Position numbers and translations under genes: made by a program. Under the pieces are notes generated by a model that was given only the letters and a program-made list of their open reading frames with translations, was not told the origin of the DNA and made no database searches. This document shows, one piece after another, positions 15-8,712 of a stretch of 64,000 nucleotides of DNA; within the stretch, counting starts at the first letter, position 1, and the number at the start of each line of letters is the position of its first letter. This DNA is from Candidatus Thorarchaeota archaeon (GTDB lineage: Archaea; Asgardarchaeota; Thorarchaeia; Thorarchaeales; Thorarchaeaceae): the NCBI GenBank assembly GCA_048882325.1, contig JBHLRS010000001.1:1-64000 (forward strand), given 5' to 3'.

Positions 15-1682
15 TTACTTGACTATCTCCATGCCGCACTTCTGGCAGTACTGAGCACCAGATTCAATCGCTGCCCCACATTTGGGACATTTTCCTGAGT
101 ATCTACTCCAATGAATCAGCAATCTCTCTATGTCATCACGTTGTACTAGTCTTCTGCGAAGAAGTTCTTCTAGACCTCCGACTAATAGTTGCTCAGCCTC
201 AGGAGCTAATAGCATGTTGCCTTTCAAACACACTCGATCAAAGGCACCCTTGAAAGATTGGTCATTCTTCAACCAATCGTCGACTAAGGTCTTTATTGCG
301 CTATCAAAGTCATTGCTCAAGGTTTTCTCTCGCCCCATGGGTAATAGGTTCCCATCAGGTAAGAAACAGGGCGTTAGGAGTTCGCGAGATTTATCGTCGT
401 AAGTTGCCACATACATGTGTATGTCGAGGAGTGTCAACGGCGCAAGGTCATTCACAGCACTATTGTCAAGTGTCCAGTTCATAAGACCAAGAAACTCCTG
501 CTGAACTGTCAACACTCTGTTCTCGATTAATTGTTCAGTTCTGCTTATTGCATGGTCGACTGTAGTCTTGAGATCATCAAGTTCTTTCACCTTGAGATCC
601 AATTCCCTTCGCGCTTCATCGATTCTTGTATTTCGTTCTTGAATCTCAGTATGCATCAAATTCTCTGCTTGTATTTTTTCAGATTCAAATGTTGATTGGG
701 CTTCTGCCACACGTTTCTCTAACTCCGCTTTCTTCATATCCATCATGTCTATGGGCTGCTGACTATTCGTCAGACTGCCTTTGAGTGAGCTAACAAGTCT
801 GTTGTAAATTGATATTGCTCCTTCAGTATCTGCTTCCTTCTGACCAATCTGAGCTCTTGCGTTTCTAATTTCACTGACAATATCTCCAAAGAATTGTTCC
901 AAGTCATTAATTGTTCTAGAGAAATCCGCAGTCATGGCCCGAAGGTTAATTTTGTGTTTCTCACGCAACTCGTAAATCTTGTCCTCTTTTTTCTTCGTGA
1001 GATTAGCAATCTCTTGCCTAGTTCTCTCCTCCATAGTCCTTACACGTTCATTTCCTCTCTCCTTTTCCAGATTTGTGAGGTTCTCGAGGATAGTGGTTTG
1101 AGCACCAAAATTCTCCCTGATTAAACTCTTGAGAGTTTCAGCTGATTCGATACGAAGCTTTGCTGACTCAGAAATACTTCTGAACTCTTCTGTTCTCTTA
1201 AGCGCAGCGGCAGAATCAGAAAGAATCTCAATCCTGTTTGGCTCAACACCAGGATCAGATACAAGAACATAATTCCCTATTGCTTTGACAAATGATGGCT
1301 CTGTTATATTGGCAATATCAGCAGTAAGACTCTCAACTCTCTCAATAAGTGGTTGTATCTTAGAAGCAACACTCGGGATATCTGTCGCTTGAGACAAATC
1401 CGTGCTAATTATTCTCTTAACCTCACCTGCAGCCTTCATATCTGTGAACTGGAACTCCTTTCGCAAACTGCTGGAGGCAGCTAGAACTATAGATTTCGTC
1501 GGTGAGGTTTGAACAATCCAGAATGGGAACGAAACTGCGCTCAAACTCACAATCCTGGTTTTATGCCCCTTCAGAGCCTCTGCTGTTGCCAGTGCTGAAG
1601 CAAGACATATTCCATCTGATTCAGGTACAATTCTTGTTCCTTCCTTCTTGAAGAGGAAATTTAGATGTAGATGCCTAACCAA
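15..1682 (-). CDS. Long coiled-coil protein with C-terminal zinc ribbon
   Basis: 555 aa; E/K/R-rich heptad region at about aa 160-400; C-terminal CPKCG...CQKCG; FPFWIV motif near N-terminus. Confidence 0.8.
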   Translation of the reverse strand: MVRHLHLNFLFKKEGTRIVPESDGICLASALATAEALKGHKTRIVSLSAVSFPFWIVQTSPTKSIVLAASSSLRKEFQFTDMKAAGEVKRIISTDLSQATDIPSVASKIQPLIERVESLTADIANITEPSFVKAIGNYVLVSDPGVEPNRIEILSDSAAALKRTEEFRSISESAKLRIESAETLKSLIRENFGAQTTILENLTNLEKERGNERVRTMEERTRQEIANLTKKKEDKIYELREKHKINLRAMTADFSRTINDLEQFFGDIVSEIRNARAQIGQKEADTEGAISIYNRLVSSLKGSLTNSQQPIDMMDMKKAELEKRVAEAQSTFESEKIQAENLMHTEIQERNTRIDEARRELDLKVKELDDLKTTVDHAISRTEQLIENRVLTVQQEFLGLMNWTLDNSAVNDLAPLTLLDIHMYVATYDDKSRELLTPCFLPDGNLLPMGREKTLSNDFDSAIKTLVDDWLKNDQSFKGAFDRVCLKGNMLLAPEAEQLLVGGLEELLRRRLVQRDDIERLLIHWSRYSGKCPKCGAAIESGAQYCQKCGMEIVK

Positions 1683-1750
1683 ACTAACACAACCTTTTGG
1701 ATTATCAGGAACTCATTAGTAATTATGCCTTTTTGGGAAGAATTACCTCG

Positions 1751-2161
1751 CTACATTTGAGCCAGAGTTTCAGCTTCATCGACAGACAATATTTCTTCTG
1801 TCAAGAGCTCTTTAAGAATTTCAAGATACTGATTGTTGAGTCTGAATCCATCTCCTTCGACAACTCGTACCGTAGCTCTATGATTCCATTCAGCATCCGG
1901 GTCATCCACTGAGTGCAGGGTAACTACGTAGTTCTCACCTGCTCTGGCCATCATCAATCTCACGTTGTCATATCTTAAGCCTTTCATTTCACTACCAATG
2001 GATCTTCTGGCATAGGACTGAATAGCAGACATGAAAGAACCGAACAGCTCCTGATTGAGTTTTATCTCGTCTAATCCAACAGAGGCTTGGCGAATGCCTG
2101 CTTCATCAAATACAATTATGCCCTTCAAAGTCTTGACAACCACTTGGTACTCTATACACAT
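1751..2161 (-). CDS. Longin/roadblock-like small domain protein
   Basis: GIIVFDEAGI...QELFGSFMSAIQSYA...MKGLRYDNVRLMM fits the longin beta-beta-alpha-beta pattern; alternative start GTG 2143. Confidence 0.65.
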   Translation of the reverse strand: MCIEYQVVVKTLKGIIVFDEAGIRQASVGLDEIKLNQELFGSFMSAIQSYARRSIGSEMKGLRYDNVRLMMARAGENYVVTLHSVDDPDAEWNHRATVRVVEGDGFRLNNQYLEILKELLTEEILSVDEAETLAQM

Positions 2162-2214
2162 GCTAATGAAGACCTGTATTATGGGTACCTAGTATAGACA
2201 ATGTAACTTCTTTG

Positions 2215-2604
2215 TTATTGTCCAAGAAGTTCTCCTACTTCTTTTGCATATTTCCTCATCTGAGTCACAGCAAGACCCATTGAGGTCAGGTCTTTGGCTG
2301 AACCCATGAGCAAGAACTCACCTGCATGAGAGAGGACGACGAAGCCATCCTTTCCACGAACAACGACCTCATAGAGATCACTCAGTTCAAGTTTGCTTGC
2401 AGCCATGTCTCCAGTCATCAATAGTGCAGCGCTGACAGCAGCCATGAGATCTGGGTCTGCTTCAGAGTCTTCCGTAGCAAAATAGGCGAGCTTCACTCCC
2501 TGCTTGCTCACAACAGCTATCGCATCAAGGTCAGCATAGTTGGTTAGACCCATCAATAGCTCAACAAGTTCCTTTTCCTTTGCAGGATCAAGATGAGATG
2601 ACAT
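2215..2604 (-). CDS. Roadblock/LC7 (MglB-like) domain protein
   Basis: AIAVVSKQG, LMAAVSAALLMTGDMAASKL, EVVVRGKDGFVVL, MGLAVTQMRKYAKEV. Confidence 0.9.
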   Translation of the reverse strand: MSSHLDPAKEKELVELLMGLTNYADLDAIAVVSKQGVKLAYFATEDSEADPDLMAAVSAALLMTGDMAASKLELSDLYEVVVRGKDGFVVLSHAGEFLLMGSAKDLTSMGLAVTQMRKYAKEVGELLGQ

Positions 2605-2633
2605 TTTGTATACCTCTTTTCACGCGATTGTAA

Positions 2634-3557
2634 TCATTTGGCAACTAGCTTCTTGCCCTTCGCCTTACCTTTACCCTTCTTCTGTGATTCAGCTTGTTCT
2701 TCCTCAAGTTCTGACCTGAAAAAGGTGATAAGATCGCCAAGACGTTCCTTCATCTCAGCTTTGATAGGGCTTAGTATTGCATCTGGAGTTCCCTTGAGTA
2801 GCTCGATTCCCAAGACTCTTCCATCCTTCACAATTACTCTTGGGATGAATCCTTCAGCCATAAACGTGCCTTCCGGAGGGTCCTTCACCTTCTCGAACTT
2901 TCGTTCGACTTTCTCCTGACCAAATACAGCTATCTTATGCTCTGCAACAGTGTAAAGTTCATTGTAGATGATCAACAACTCTCTCTGATATCCTTCTGGA
3001 GGATCAACATTTTCTAGTTCACTGATCATCGATTGGATTTCTCCTGCCATAGCAGAAGATGCAGCTGAAGTTGGTGGTTTCGGAGGCGGCCTAGCAGTGG
3101 TAGGTTTCGATGTTGCAGTAGGCGGTTTGGGCGGAGGTGTTGAAACCTTTGATTCTGTTTTTGGTTCGGTAGCTGGTGGTTTTGGTGGTGGTGCTGAAGT
3201 GGCAGGTTCATCATTAGCTTTTGCTTTGGGTGGAGATGGAGGCGGTGCTTTTTCACCGGGTTTCAAAACACGAGATGCGGCTGTGGTTCCATCTAAAGCG
3301 GTGAAGAAAGTTGGTGGTTCTTCTCCCTCGTCTAGTGGTCTTACCTTGAAATGAAAACCGTACTCTGTTCTTAGGTTGGTTGCAACCCTCGCGCCGATGA
3401 ACTTTCTTCTTATACCTGCTTGAGTTCCTTTCCAAAGATAGATGCTCTTTGTTTCATCATCGACGACACAAACCACTTTGGTAGATTCCAGATCATCCTT
3501 AGTTAATTCGACCTCATTGAGGGTTCCGTCTTCCAAGACCTCGTAGCCCACTACCAT
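2634..3557 (-). CDS. Gelsolin-domain protein (one gelsolin repeat, Pro-rich linker, C-terminal domain; 1DGelX-like)
   Basis: DDLESTKVVCVVDD...IYLWKG...A....KF.GA..A.....DEGEEPPTFF gelsolin signature; four PPP(K/S)PP repeats; Lys-rich tail. Confidence 0.85.
   Translation of the reverse strand: MVVGYEVLEDGTLNEVELTKDDLESTKVVCVVDDETKSIYLWKGTQAGIRRKFIGARVATNLRTEYGFHFKVRPLDEGEEPPTFFTALDGTTAASRVLKPGEKAPPPSPPKAKANDEPATSAPPPKPPATEPKTESKVSTPPPKPPTATSKPTTARPPPKPPTSAASSAMAGEIQSMISELENVDPPEGYQRELLIIYNELYTVAEHKIAVFGQEKVERKFEKVKDPPEGTFMAEGFIPRVIVKDGRVLGIELLKGTPDAILSPIKAEMKERLGDLITFFRSELEEEQAESQKKGKGKAKGKKLVAK
3070..3250 (-). repeat. Four Pro-rich PPP(K/S)PP peptide repeats inside the gelsolin gene
   Basis: APPPSPPK, APPPKPPA, TPPPKPPT, RPPPKPPT; coordinates approximate. 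Confidence 0.85.
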
Positions 3558-3737
3558 AATCAATCACTACGCTACTCGTTAAACATCTACGCTGGTCACC
3601 TGTGATAGCTAGCCAGCGTGGTTATTGCCTTTTTGTGCTATATGATTGTTATTGTGTTAGATATGGTGGCAGAATCATCGTCTTATCGTTGTGGAGAAGG
3701 CTTATGAGTTAGAAGCACCATCAAAATTCAGGCGTTC

Positions 3738-4862
3738 GTGATGGAAGAACCAGAGACATATGTCAGTCCCTATAAGCAGCTATTCGATGAGACGCAGGAT
3801 CTTAGCTTTGGAAAACTGCTTCTTGGACTTGTGATATCTACCCTCATTCTGCTTGGGTCAACTTGGGGGCTTCTCGCTCTACTGAATTCTGTAGGTATAT
3901 TCATTTTAGATCCTGCAAATTTCACTCGATATACGATTTACATGCTTGGTGCATCTGGAGGAACAATGGTTCTGGCAATCATTCTCTGCGGGATTCTGAT
4001 AAAGTGGCCCCGATCTGTGAGTCTTCCACTATTGATTCATAGAAGAGCGAAGCACCACGCTGGAGACTATTTCATGTCTCCAGACCCAGAGGATGAGAAT
4101 CTAAAGGACGCTTTTAGACGGTCTCTTTATGGTTCTGTTTTAATTGTTGGAATCGCATTAACAATCCTAGGATTCGAGTTAATAGCTGATGTAACTACCA
4201 TTGATGTGATCTATTTGGGCTCAATCCTGATGGCTGTTAGTATTATTATTCTTCCATTTACAGTCATGCTTCTCTACTTCGGTCCCTGGTTGATGAAAGA
4301 GGCTGGTCTGTTTCACCTCGATGCCAAGGATAGGTCTCTAAGCAATGTTGGAGACGATGTTGAAGATATACTCGAGTTCTTTGCAGGTGTTGACATCATT
4401 CTTGTCTGGATTGAGCTTACATTGAGTGTTGGTCTTGAAGCTGTCTGGGTTCCAATTTTCATTATTCTAGTCGCCCTAGGTCCTCTGTTTGCTATTATTC
4501 TCAATTTTACCATCATCTTTGTATTCGTCAAGAAAAGAGCAACCATTTCGATGATGCGTTACCTCTCGGAGAGATATGATGTTCCTGACATGAAAACCTC
4601 TCCTACTTACATTCGGAGTCAAGTCATGGCACTGGTTGAACGTGAGCTATTTATGACAGCTGCAGCCCCACCCATTGAATCTGTTACTACAGAGGATGTT
4701 GAGGAAGAACCTGTGGTAGATGAGCAGGTACAGCCACAATATGAACCAGACACTGAAGGAGATACAAAGGCAAAACGAAAACACGTTCCTCCACCGCCGG
4801 GAGGTCATATTCCACCAGCACCAAGTGATAAACCCGCATCACTGTCGGAGGATGATGATTGA
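3738..4862 (+). CDS. Multi-pass membrane protein with acidic and Pro-rich C-terminal tail
   Basis: About 6 hydrophobic segments; tail HVPPPPGGHIPPAPSDKP. Confidence 0.8.
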   Translation: MMEEPETYVSPYKQLFDETQDLSFGKLLLGLVISTLILLGSTWGLLALLNSVGIFILDPANFTRYTIYMLGASGGTMVLAIILCGILIKWPRSVSLPLLIHRRAKHHAGDYFMSPDPEDENLKDAFRRSLYGSVLIVGIALTILGFELIADVTTIDVIYLGSILMAVSIIILPFTVMLLYFGPWLMKEAGLFHLDAKDRSLSNVGDDVEDILEFFAGVDIILVWIELTLSVGLEAVWVPIFIILVALGPLFAIILNFTIIFVFVKKRATISMMRYLSERYDVPDMKTSPTYIRSQVMALVERELFMTAAAPPIESVTTEDVEEEPVVDEQVQPQYEPDTEGDTKAKRKHVPPPPGGHIPPAPSDKPASLSEDDD

Positions 4863-5903
4863 ATCCTCCTTGAAGGCAAATGATACTACATTCTCTCCAT
4901 TGGCCCTCAAGCGTCTTACTAGCTCTTCATCATACGTAAGAGCAATAATGGGAGTGCCATTGAAATCTAAAACAATCTTGAAGGATCCTACCTGAGGCGT
5001 AATCGCAGTAAGATTAGCTACTCCTCCTCCCTCAATTGAGGAATCGTAAATCAGCACATCCTCTGGCTTGACACCAAACGTAAGTTCAGTTCCCAGTTCC
5101 CCTGCAGTAGGAATGTCAAACTGATTATTGTTCACCATTACACTCACAGCATCTCTAGAAACCTTGACAATCTCACCTGTGAAGACATTTCCACTCCCGA
5201 GAAATCTAGCAACAAACTCGTTTGCTGGTGAATCATACAACTCCTCTGGTGTTCCGACCTGAACTATCAATCCATCATTGAGTATGGCTACTCTGTCAGA
5301 TATCGCAAATGCCTCATCTTGACTATGGGTAACATAGATAGTTGTGATTCCAAGTTTTCTTTGGATCCTGCGAATCTCTGTCTGGAGTCGCTCTCTAAGC
5401 TGAAGATCAAGTGCCGACAGTGGTTCATCGAGTAGGAGGAGTGATGGGTTCGTTGCAAGGGCACGGGCAAGAGCCACTCGTTGAGCCTCACCGCCACTGA
5501 CCTCTGATGTTTTCCTCAATAGAAGATTCCTGATATCTAAAAGATCCGCTAGTTCCTCTACTCGAGCAATTGTTTCCTCTCTTGTCCATCCTGCCATGTC
5601 TGGTCCAAATGAGATGTTCTCGAAGACGGTCATGTTTGGGAACAGTGCAACTGACTGAAAGACCATCCCAATATTTCGATTACGAGGTTCGACATTGACC
5701 ATGTCTTTCCCGTCGAATAGCAGACTTCCACCAACATCCTCAATGAATCCAGCCACCATACGAAGCGTAGTTGTCTTTCCAGACCCACTGGGACCCAGTA
5801 GAGTAAGAAACTCACCTTCATCAACCTTAAGATCGATGGGTCCTATTCTAGATCCATCGTCGAATTCTCGAATAAGTCCTCTCAGCTCGACCTTTACCAT
5901 CAT
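4839..5903 (-). CDS. thiQ: Thiamine ABC transporter ATP-binding subunit
   Basis: GPSGSGKT, VSGGEAQR, LLLDEP, TOBE-like C-terminus; operon with thiB and thiP. Confidence 0.85.
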   Translation of the reverse strand: MMVKVELRGLIREFDDGSRIGPIDLKVDEGEFLTLLGPSGSGKTTTLRMVAGFIEDVGGSLLFDGKDMVNVEPRNRNIGMVFQSVALFPNMTVFENISFGPDMAGWTREETIARVEELADLLDIRNLLLRKTSEVSGGEAQRVALARALATNPSLLLLDEPLSALDLQLRERLQTEIRRIQRKLGITTIYVTHSQDEAFAISDRVAILNDGLIVQVGTPEELYDSPANEFVARFLGSGNVFTGEIVKVSRDAVSVMVNNNQFDIPTAGELGTELTFGVKPEDVLIYDSSIEGGGVANLTAITPQVGSFKIVLDFNGTPIIALTYDEELVRRLRANGENVVSFAFKEDSIIILRQ

Positions 5904-7564
5904 AAAGCACCTCCAGTACTACCTTCAGAGATTCGTTCCATGATAAGAAATGCAAGCACACAGATGATTACGAGGATGAGCGCCGCTGCGCCTGCCTCAA
6001 CAAATGCTCTTACACCTAGATAGTTGTAGATTGCGACTGCCAACGTGTAATTTTGTGGTAACGCAATGAACAGAGTGGCTGACATCTCACCTATCGCCAT
6101 GGCAAATGCAAAAACTCCACCTACTATGATACCAGGAGCTAGCAATGGAATTTCAATGTAAAGAAGACGTTGAATTCGTGATGCACCCAAGGAATCTGCC
6201 TGGTCCAATAAAGCCATGTCAATCTTACTCATTGCTATCTCTATCGCCCTAGCACTAAATGGAAGTCCTATGATTGTCTGTGCCACAACTATGATAGGCC
6301 ATGGATTCGTTACGAGTCCAAGTGGGACGGCAATAACCAGAACTAGACCGTAAGCAACTGTGACTGATGATATTCCCAATGGCAGAAGAATCATAATAGA
6401 TGCAAGCGTAGGTATGGTCTTTGATCTTGACCTCATTGAAATTGCCAAAGGTATACCAAGGAGAACTGCAAACAAAGTCGCGAGACCTGCGTAGAATAGA
6501 GAATTGACCAGATACCAACTTCCATCCGTGAAGAGAGTGATGAAACCATCAAGAGTGTATCTCTGCAATGTGGGATCAAAGACTGATGCTCTGATGATTG
6601 TGGCAATAGGTCCTAAGACCAAGATTACAATCAAAATGAGATAACCTGCAATAAATCCCTTCTCGATGTGGCTGTAGCGATTGATTGTTGTCGTTTTGAT
6701 GGAGGCCGTTGGACCTGTTGAATCCTGATGTCTTCCCAATTGCACGTAGACGAAAGCCAGACTTAGTGTGACAATTATCTGGACTAGAGTAAGCGAACTG
6801 GCTTGCCCATAATCAAAGAATCTGAAAGCATTGTAGATCTGAGCTTCAATTGTGAGATAGACTCCCTGACCAAATGCCAAAACAATTGGGAATGACATGA
6901 AGCAAAACATGAATGTCAGTACTGCTGCGGCAAGTAAAGATGGCATGATATGAGGAAGTGTTATTCGACGAAGTCGTTGAAATGGGGACGCTCCAAGTAT
7001 TTCTGCACTCTCTTCTATCTCCGGATTTAGACGTTCAAGTGACGCTGATACTATTAGTAACACAAGGGGCACATTATAGAATGTATGGGCTAGGATTATA
7101 CCAGGAACGCCTCTCGCTAGATTGAACACTGATGCGCTTGAGCCTTGAATCCACATGAGGATGGAATCAATGAGTCCATATGATCCAAACATCTGAAGAA
7201 ATCCCACTACAACGACGATGGGTGGAAGCACAAAGGGAACAATCATCATTGCCTTGACTAGAGACTTTCCTCGAAATCGCAAACGGGCTATTAAGAAGGC
7301 CCCTGGCAACCCGATAACTACTGCTAGAATTGTACTCAGAATTGCTTGACTAAAGGTAAAGATGATTGTAAATTGAATTCTGGATAAACCAAGTACATCA
7401 ATGAATGAAGTTCCATCCATGAATCCTCGAACAGTGACTATGAAGACTGGGAAGAGAATGAAAACTGCGAGTATCAAAATTGGAAATGCTAGTGCTGCAT
7501 ATCTCGCAATTCCTTGTGCTCTCACTTTGGATTCCTCTTCTATGGTGTTCGAGTTGCATCCCAT
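5900..7564 (-). CDS. thiP: Thiamine ABC transporter permease (duplicated BPD_transp_1)
   Basis: Two EAA-type loops (EESAEILGAS, DQADSLGAS); about 12 TM. Confidence 0.85.
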   Translation of the reverse strand: MGCNSNTIEEESKVRAQGIARYAALAFPILILAVFILFPVFIVTVRGFMDGTSFIDVLGLSRIQFTIIFTFSQAILSTILAVVIGLPGAFLIARLRFRGKSLVKAMMIVPFVLPPIVVVVGFLQMFGSYGLIDSILMWIQGSSASVFNLARGVPGIILAHTFYNVPLVLLIVSASLERLNPEIEESAEILGASPFQRLRRITLPHIMPSLLAAAVLTFMFCFMSFPIVLAFGQGVYLTIEAQIYNAFRFFDYGQASSLTLVQIIVTLSLAFVYVQLGRHQDSTGPTASIKTTTINRYSHIEKGFIAGYLILIVILVLGPIATIIRASVFDPTLQRYTLDGFITLFTDGSWYLVNSLFYAGLATLFAVLLGIPLAISMRSRSKTIPTLASIMILLPLGISSVTVAYGLVLVIAVPLGLVTNPWPIIVVAQTIIGLPFSARAIEIAMSKIDMALLDQADSLGASRIQRLLYIEIPLLAPGIIVGGVFAFAMAIGEMSATLFIALPQNYTLAVAIYNYLGVRAFVEAGAAALILVIICVLAFLIMERISEGSTGGAL

Positions 7565-8673
7565 AGATTCAACCAGTTGTTGAGATTTGCTGCAATCTGA
7601 GTAGAATTCAGAAGATGATTGAGCACACTCACCTCATCAGGATGAATTGCGTATTGATACACACTTGGAAGTGTTAAGTCTGTCCTGACTGGAAACATCC
7701 ACTGATTCAGTGGTATCTCATTTTGGACTGTGGCATTAAGACAATAATCAATGAATGCTTTGCCTAATTCAGGATTAGGACCATTCTTGACTAGTCCGAC
7801 TCCCTCAACCTGCATCCATGCCCAATACTGAGCATTATAATAGAAGGGTGCTACAGCAGTATCTGGAGCTGTGCCCAGATAATTGGCTGAGTATGCGGGA
7901 TCAGTTCCATAGCTCACCAATAGATGCTTACTCGGGTCGCCTGACCAGACTGACCACGCCTCGGTCCATCCTTCCTGCACATCAATCTCACTGCTCACAG
8001 TGTCCCACCATGTGGTCCAGTCCTCTTCCAGTAGGTCTTCGTAAACTGCAATCTGCGAGAGTAGAAACGCAAGCCCTGGACTACTATAGTGTGGATTCTC
8101 TGTGACAAGTGCTGACGCTAGCCCTGGATCAGCTAGGTCTGCGAATGTTAGATTTTCCAGCTGTGGGTGTGTGGTTGTGTTAATAGTGTTCATCGAGTAG
8201 ATTAGAGTGACAAGTCCAAAATCGAATGGTGTGAGGTAGTGGTCTGGATCCAACAAGTTCACAAAGGTGTCATTGATGAGACTTAGACTTGGCGACACAT
8301 ATGGCTCTAACACATTTTTAGCTTCATCCTGAAGTATGAGAATATTGTCAATTCCAATAACCGCATCTGCTACTGGGTTTGCAGATTCGGATACCAGTTT
8401 GGATACGATGCCATTCGCATCTACCTCTAATAGGATAATTACTACATCGACCCCATATTCCTCTTCAAAAGGAGCAAAAGCTCGCTCCAATACAACTTCT
8501 GCGCCTTCATCTCCCCAGTCAAGAAATGAACTGTAGGTGTAGACGACAATCTGAGATTCCTGTCTTGGTTGCCACCAAGTCACTGCTGCATAAGTTGCTA
8601 TGATTAAGATGACTGCAATGGCAATTACAGCGATTATTTGCCTGGGGTCTTTTCTGACAGGATATTCGGTCAT
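7540..8673 (-). CDS. thiB: Thiamine ABC transporter substrate-binding protein
   Basis: VYTYSSF, SSPGLAFLL, VSYGTDPAY, QWMFP motifs of ThiB/TbpA; N-terminal anchor; start moved to MTEYP. Confidence 0.85.
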   Translation of the reverse strand: MTEYPVRKDPRQIIAVIAIAVILIIATYAAVTWWQPRQESQIVVYTYSSFLDWGDEGAEVVLERAFAPFEEEYGVDVVIILLEVDANGIVSKLVSESANPVADAVIGIDNILILQDEAKNVLEPYVSPSLSLINDTFVNLLDPDHYLTPFDFGLVTLIYSMNTINTTTHPQLENLTFADLADPGLASALVTENPHYSSPGLAFLLSQIAVYEDLLEEDWTTWWDTVSSEIDVQEGWTEAWSVWSGDPSKHLLVSYGTDPAYSANYLGTAPDTAVAPFYYNAQYWAWMQVEGVGLVKNGPNPELGKAFIDYCLNATVQNEIPLNQWMFPVRTDLTLPSVYQYAIHPDEVSVLNHLLNSTQIAANLNNWLNLWDATRTP

Positions 8674-8712
8674 AATCTTTTCTGGAGCCTCCAATGGAGT
8701 TGCATGCAAGCA

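Follow-up and report, generated by a model that had tools for sequence, protein, structure and literature searches.

A GelX gelsolin–roadblock gene pair as the probable old core of a composite four-gene run in a Thorarchaeota genome

In genome G000, an assembly of 3.6 Mb and of Thorarchaeota type, contig C1 begins with the 64-kb stretch studied here (the window). This stretch starts with four co-oriented open reading frames (ORFs) on the minus strand at 15..3563. They encode a GelX-type gelsolin (gene 1), a roadblock protein (gene 2), a longin-fold protein (gene 3), and a 555-amino-acid (aa) zinc-ribbon protein (gene 4), separated by gaps of 29, 53 (71 with the GTG start of gene 3), and 68 bp. 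Here we establish the domain identities and architecture of the four proteins, the order and distribution of their genes, and the insertion history of the run. The run is probably best explained as an old unit of GelX and roadblock genes, to which gene 3 was added in the genus of the window and beside which gene 4 is a recent neighbor.

2634..3563, minus strand: gene 1, GelX/1DGelX-type gelsolin gene, 307 aa with the ATG at 3557 as start, or 309 aa with the TTG upstream of it at 3563
2215..2604, minus strand: gene 2, Roadblock/LC7 gene, 129 aa, with a Robl_LC7 (PF03259) match; conserved partner gene of GelX
1751..2161, minus strand: gene 3, stand-alone gene for a longin-fold protein, 136 aa; the GTG at 2143, which public assemblies call and which is the more probable start, gives 130 aa
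15..1682, minus strand: gene 4, 555-aa protein of an uncharacterized archaeal family, with an N-terminal domain, a long helical middle, a C-terminal domain, and a zinc ribbon
24..92, minus strand: C-terminal CxxC...CxxC zinc ribbon of gene 4, residues 531-553, PF13240 (Zn_Ribbon_1), 30.6 bits against a cut-off of 25

An earlier reading of this stretch (the original prediction) had described four co-oriented genes with gaps of 29–68 bp, which the ORF list bears out (29, 53, and 68 bp). Its domain assignments (gelsolin, roadblock, longin, and zinc ribbon with a helical middle) are also right, as judged by profile and structure matches.

Asgard archaea crawl and reshape by means of an actin cytoskeleton (PMC13716822). 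Their actin regulators are few, and GelX is among those that co-purify with Lokiactin. Because it has kept its place next to GelX in deeply separated Asgard lineages, the roadblock gene makes a specific candidate regulatory partner. The run also carries a caution: a closely spaced, co-oriented series of "eukaryotic signature" genes in one genome can be a recent accident, and half of this run appears to be one.

Conservation of the GelX–roadblock pair

Full-length relatives of GelX were located in 400 Asgard genomes, and 40 loci from 16 families were taken for synteny analysis. ORFs in these loci were called by our own simple script and then searched with profiles of the four proteins. A stand-alone, co-oriented roadblock ortholog directly follows GelX at 22 of the 40 loci, in six of the 16 families. 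The pair is found in all eight sampled Thor (Thorarchaeota) genera and in families f2, f6, f22, f28, and f29. The gap between the two genes is −3 to +82 bp outside f22 and 160–230 bp in f22, and is often 3–30 bp. In the window, the 29-bp gap contains a GAGGT motif 9 bp ahead of the gene 2 start codon (ATG). The flanks of the pair vary between families (Nnr, thermosome, CDC48, and others). Only 12 Robl_LC7 matches occur in the 3.6 Mb of G000, and chance adjacency is therefore unlikely. In five genomes in which the pair is split, one clearly best roadblock ortholog is present elsewhere in the genome (for example, 162 versus 100 bits in G308). At the level of gene order, the originally proposed connection of an actin regulator with a roadblock gene is thus real.

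These comparisons suggest that the pair is the only old part of the run. Its gene-order pattern resembles that of a functionally coupled two-gene unit, although inherited gene order is a possible source of the same pattern. Several points weigh against functional coupling. No roadblock gene is present beside GelX at 14 of the 40 loci, from eight families, indicating that adjacency is dispensable. GelX and roadblock genes are both near-universal in Asgard archaea, so their co-occurrence says little. The metabolic gene Nnr is also a conserved upstream neighbor of GelX in many non-Thor families, indicating that synteny may partly reflect inherited order without a functional link. A fusion of GelX and roadblock was not found among longer proteins, which is weak evidence. 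In addition, the 40 loci are the best full-length GelX matches, a non-random choice, and their ORF calls are simple ones.

Such an unbroken ancestral order, with GelX acting alone on actin and the roadblock protein serving a GTPase elsewhere, is in accordance with three observations: recombinant 1DGelX needs no partner for full activity on actin (PMC7444086), the pair is split in eight of the 16 sampled families with neither gene lost, and Nnr is another frequent neighbor. However, the adjacency extends across very deep splits (GelX 28–39% identical) while the surroundings have changed. In several families the genes overlap or are 3–30 bp apart, which is typical of co-translated operon partners. 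Moreover, the roadblock partner is one specific ortholog group among ~12 paralogs per genome. Neutral synteny is therefore unlikely in our judgment. We lean, by a modest measure, towards a working unit, in which GelX and the roadblock gene would most likely be co-transcribed and their products would act together, with a roadblock dimer as adaptor or regulator of GelX.

Both GelX and the roadblock proteins of Asgard archaea have been published, and none of the papers searched links the two as a pair. Those on GelX do not mention a roadblock neighbor ("roadblock" occurs 0 times), and the word "gelsolin" occurs 0 times in Tran et al. 2024 (PMC10933270).

Other arrangements are also seen beside GelX. 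In f18 and f19 (four further loci), a 284–309-aa protein with an N-terminal roadblock domain is encoded <1 kb from GelX. These proteins (L024:6541-7395, L033:6144-7067, L034:6136-7038, and L042:9515-10444) have a C-terminal part of ~200 aa, and their genes are 0.6–0.9 kb distant from GelX; one of the four lies on the opposite strand. In family f14 (L026:6544-7866; also L027 and L043), the gene after GelX encodes, instead of a roadblock protein, one of 440 aa that carries four or five zinc ribbons. Nnr is a bifunctional NAD(P)H-hydrate repair enzyme (YjeF_N and Carb_kinase) that is co-oriented directly upstream of GelX at L028, L029, L024, L042, and other non-Thor loci; it is confirmed by Pfam at L029 and assigned from N-terminal sequence similarity at the other loci.

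Late arrival of genes 3 and 4

The original prediction had taken the four genes as one module, in which the roadblock and longin proteins relay small-GTPase signals to gelsolin with the 555-aa protein as a scaffold. Co-orientation, short gaps, the occurrence of the same order in ~6 species, and the GTPase linkage of gene 3 paralogs are consistent with such a module. Synteny, however, holds for genes 1 and 2 and fails for genes 3 and 4. The four-gene order is found in only ~6 species of one genus; six other Thor genera and every other Asgard family sampled lack it. No GTPase is conserved at the locus. In these six genera, genes 3 and 4 are missing from the locus, and the roadblock gene has an aminotransferase gene directly behind it and then a 590-aa gene. 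The contig of G000 ends at position 1, so nothing is seen to the left of gene 4, but a near-identical assembly (L001) extends beyond this end. The aminotransferase and 590-aa genes of the six genera are orthologous (69–76% and 45–49% identical, respectively) to genes beyond gene 4 in L001. Genes 3 and 4 thus appear to be late, lineage-specific additions beside the pair, which would make the run a composite.

Gene 3 joins the pair only in the genus of the window. In at least 22 of the 27 genomes of this genus, an ortholog (54–88% identical) comes after the pair, and none does so anywhere else. Outside the genus, only paralogs of gene 3 (35–47% identical) are found, at other places.

Gene 4 has an unstable position even among sister species. 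It is located directly after gene 3 in G000, G343, G354, G356, G360, and G361. Between genes 3 and 4 lies a citrate-type transporter gene (CitMHS) in G338 and G347 or a histidine kinase gene in G357 and G359, and in G346 four genes are inserted, three of them on the opposite strand. In G362, gene 4 is at a distance of 17.8 kb, and in other genomes whole contigs separate it from gene 3. In genus g12, its orthologs (67–73% identical) are located elsewhere, 490 kb off in one genome (70% identical). The gene 4 family is present in 70 of 85 Thor genomes as two paralog groups and is adjacent to the pair in only ~6. The widespread copy of the family sits among nucleotide-metabolism genes: its neighbors are a phosphoribosyltransferase-family gene with an N-terminal match resembling phosphoribosyl pyrophosphate synthase, a dCTP deaminase gene, and a purine/uridine phosphorylase-family gene.

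The unstable position of gene 4 argues against a dedicated scaffold role, and the proposal that its coiled coil serves as a scaffold is unsupported. Gene 4 would instead be a recently arrived paralog of a widespread archaeal gene, that is, a neighbor and not a fixed component. With gene 3 confined to one genus and gene 4 unstable, a single conserved four-gene module is improbable.

Beyond the zinc ribbon, gene 4 has no homolog in Pfam, NCBIfam, or the PDB, and its helical middle matches only generic helical proteins. Its family comprises ~30–40 clusters at 50% identity, with proteins of ~530–590 aa, in Thor-, Hel-, and Ranarchaeia, and has look-alikes at the level of structure in Bathyarchaeota and Thermoproteota. 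The gene 4 copies of g12 (G366-G381) are 67–73% identical, versus 44–52% for the copies in G340, G352, and G362, which belong to the same genus as the window (g1). These values point to transfer between genera or to unrecognized paralogy.

Transfer of this kind, together with the uptake of foreign genes between genes 3 and 4, would be in line with joint arrival of the two genes as a mobile cassette that landed beside the pair by chance. However, gene 3 follows the pair across essentially the entire genus and gene 4 is found there only in a subset, and the two families are unlinked anywhere else checked. Their distribution suggests two separate events, and we consider a shared cassette very improbable.

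Architecture of GelX

The protein encoded by gene 1 has four parts, in order from the N-terminus:

3291..3557, minus strand: gelsolin-homology domain, residues 3-91, matching PDB 7c2f (ProGel); predicted local distance difference test (pLDDT) 85-97
3066..3290, minus strand: Pro-rich linker, residues 92-166, predicted to be disordered; pLDDT 50-64
2673..3065, minus strand: domain X, residues 167-297, predicted by AlphaFold2 (AF2) as a helix, a five-stranded antiparallel sheet, and a long C-terminal helix; pLDDT ~90
2637..2672, minus strand: polybasic, Lys-rich C-terminal tail, read from the sequence, KKGKGKAKGKKLVAK

The AF2 model was built from 41 homologs and has an overall pLDDT of 79.8. The gelsolin domain matches the Thorarchaeota ProGel chain 7c2f by sequence (phmmer E 2.4e-13), and its model superimposes on this chain with a Z of 16.8 and a root-mean-square deviation of 1.1 Å over 88 aligned residues with 35% identity (VIA). 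The Pfam Gelsolin model gives no match to gene 1. Relatives of gene 1 form >120 clusters in Thorarchaeota at 69–100% identity, and full-length ones are present in many Asgard families.

Judged by its modeled architecture of one gelsolin domain, a linker, and a conserved domain X, gene 1 is a member of the GelX/1DGelX subfamily. It shares with Thor 1DGelX the single gelsolin domain, the long linker, domain X, the origin from Thorarchaeota, and relatives across Asgard archaea. The 35% identity of its gelsolin domain to ProGel equals the figure published for 1DGelX (PMC7444086), a correspondence that goes through ProGel. Thor 1DGelX (KXH72031.1) binds actin with a dissociation constant of 7.7 μM and, in assays on rabbit actin in vitro, shows Ca-independent nucleation and severing (Akil et al. 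2020, PMC7444086). In Lokiarchaeum ossiferum, B35_GelX, with the locus tag GNAMCCOK_00673 and flanked by GNAMCCOK_00672 and GNAMCCOK_00674, is enriched in co-immunoprecipitation of Lokiactin with a log2 fold change of 2.28 (bioRxiv 10.1101/2025.11.30.690169; PMC13716822).

The linker varies in length and sequence among families, yet is always Pro-rich. Domain X is strongly conserved in 41 sequences from 16 Asgard families. In particular, residues P189, G191, R194, E195, G215, P230, G232, F234, P241, R242, G248, E254, L256, and K257 are near-invariant in these sequences. A similar Lys-rich tail is shared by Thor and by some of the other families but is lacking in f22. Domain X is a confident alpha/beta domain in the AF2 model, whereas it is a coiled coil in the published I-TASSER model of 1DGelX and is labeled "disordered" in the L. 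ossiferum preprint (bioRxiv 10.1101/2025.11.30.690169). It has no match by sequence in Pfam or the PDB. In the Atlas structure search, it gives weak leads to Asgard proteins and bacterial sensor domains, with template modeling (TM) scores of 0.42–0.56. Structure searches with the full-length gene 1 model were filled with gelsolin matches, so domain X is barely covered by the search of solved structures. A hidden roadblock or longin domain as the identity of domain X was rejected (hhalign probability 0.5% and 0.1%, respectively).

The roadblock protein

Gene 2 matches Robl_LC7 with 40.3 bits and an E-value of 2.7e-10 (cut-off 23 bits). The PDB roadblock chains 7f8m and 9jue match it only with E ~1e-8. 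Therefore, by sequence, the solved Asgard roadblock proteins are paralogs, not orthologs, of gene 2. Like these proteins (7f8m from Thor SMTZ1-45; 7yh1, 9jue, and 9jq8 from MK-D1; PMC10933270), gene 2 encodes a stand-alone Roadblock/LC7 protein of ~120–130 aa, but it is only ~30% similar to them.

With MglA/MglB and Ragulator-Rag, gene 2 shares the roadblock fold and the notion of a roadblock dimer that regulates or positions a partner. In those systems, the roadblock protein is a GTPase-activating protein (GAP) or a platform of small GTPases, whereas gene 2 has no GTPase gene beside it and its conserved partner gene encodes an actin regulator. As a dimer, the form known from other roadblock proteins, the product of gene 2 would be a regulatory or localizing subunit of GelX and would probably contact GelX through domain X or the tail. 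Complex prediction for two roadblock chains and domain X gave a score of 0.00, with the mark at 0.32, and this speaks neither for nor against such contact.

The longin-fold protein and the GTPase link

Gene 3 has no significant match to a sequence family, with Robl_LC7 reached only at an E-value of 0.029. Its AF2 model is of moderate confidence (pLDDT 67.7) and has the topology bb-a-bbb-aa, without an N-terminal helix and with two C-terminal helices. The top Foldseek matches are zeta-COP and AP sigma (E 1.6e-5, TM 0.50). VIA matches are synbindin and AP-3 sigma (Z 9.3), with roadblock proteins within 1 Z unit, and hhalign of gene 3 against the roadblock partner family gives a probability of 51%. 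Longin matches cover residues 11-136 of the model, and roadblock matches end near residue 105. Because longins match best and roadblock proteins cover less of the model, we assign gene 3 as a probable longin-type member of the roadblock/longin superfamily. The topology is common to gene 3 and the eukaryotic longins (zeta-COP, AP sigma, synbindin/TRAPPC4, and the VAMP7 longin), which are its best structural matches. However, the likeness is at the level of the fold only, with TM ~0.5, Z ~9, and 5–14% identity for a model of moderate confidence (pLDDT 68).

The original prediction was also correct that the window holds no GTPase. A Ras-family gene is absent from the 64 kb, and the nearest one on C1 is at 95.9 kb; the genome encodes 34 Ras-family proteins. 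To the left of gene 4, L001 has the aminotransferase gene instead of a GTPase gene. The locus has no Ras-family gene in G000 or L001, and the same holds for 36 of the 40 sampled loci. The exception is f28 and f29, in which a Ras–peptidase M20 fusion is located two genes upstream of GelX, with Nnr between. The genes in question (L017:4455-6293 and L022:4649-6334; also L037 and L044) are single ORFs of 561–612 aa. The L017 ORF has an N-terminal Ras-family GTPase domain and peptidase M20, and in the L022 ORF only the Ras domain is detected.

A GTPase link is seen indirectly, through paralogs of gene 3. The GTPase at 95.9 kb on C1 adjoins such a paralog, and gene 3 paralogs are located in Ras-like GTPase operons at 13 of the 14 loci checked. 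In an unrooted maximum-likelihood tree, the gene 3 clade and four stand-alone relatives are separated from the operon-linked paralogs with 99/98 support; metagenomic rows in this tree are labeled "GelX-linked" by orthology only. Gene 3 plausibly derives from a GTPase-associated family. The coupling to GTPase signaling in the original prediction is thus left with this indirect connection, and no GTPase is conserved beside the pair.

The Thor operon that contains these paralogs is conserved and encodes a Ras-like GTPase (~185 aa), a ~90-aa protein with weak zinc-ribbon-like matches, the longin-like gene 3 paralog (~145 aa), and a ~465-aa protein, which has no Pfam match. Two or three paralogous versions are present per genome (C1 at ~93.1–96.6 kb, L093; C12 at ~6.0–8.7 kb, L094; L086-L097, L102, and L103). 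An Asgard operon with a Rab-like GTPase, a LAMTOR1-like roadblock-superfamily protein, and a DENN-domain protein has been described (Liu et al., bioRxiv 10.1101/2020.10.19.343400), and the Thor GTPase–longin operon may be the same. Unlike the components of the operon of Liu et al., gene 3 itself is outside that context and has no GTPase neighbor.

We propose that a stand-alone longin-fold gene was added behind the GelX–roadblock pair in the genus of the window and came from the Thor family with Ras-like GTPase operons. The addition points to a possible entry of GTPase input in this genus. Modulation of GelX–roadblock by the longin protein in this one genus is a more tentative proposal than the joint action of GelX and roadblock. 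Still more speculatively, the longin protein could bring GTPase input in trans; action of a GTPase in trans is doubtful in our estimate. According to Tran et al. 2024 (PMC10933270), the GTPase genes of MK-D1 are generally not found in one operon with a roadblock or longin gene. There is a slim chance that the GelX–roadblock complex works as a whole in this manner, with the roadblock dimer switching or positioning the severing protein on a signal from a small GTPase encoded elsewhere and the longin protein supplying the input in this genus. If true, a GelX–roadblock complex under GTPase control would be a prokaryotic forerunner of GTPase-controlled actin remodeling.

A separate group of gene 3 relatives is exemplified by L065:57-1349 (G392), which has matches of ~430–443 aa in many Thor genomes. 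In these proteins, an N-terminal longin-like domain is followed by TrmB-type winged-helix domains, a combination that points to a transcription regulator with a fused longin-fold sensor. A distant 430-aa relative of gene 3 matches Fuz_longin_1 at an E-value of 1.1e-4, below the cut-off.

Surroundings of the run

On the other side of GelX, the run is bordered by a divergent gene that is given for context only and is not counted as a module member:

3738..4862, plus strand: multi-pass membrane protein with a Pro-rich acidic tail (PPPPGG...PP)

This membrane protein has no family match in the family searches. Its ortholog is divergent from GelX in Thor genera g1, g2, g6, g11, and g12, and not in g9, g10, and g13. 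Next to it, at 4839-8709 on the minus strand, is an ATP-binding cassette (ABC) transporter operon encoding an SBP_bac_6 binding protein, a 554-aa permease, and an ATPase. A ThiN-domain gene adjoins this operon, as seen in L001; the operon appears to serve thiamine-related uptake and to be unrelated to the gelsolin run.

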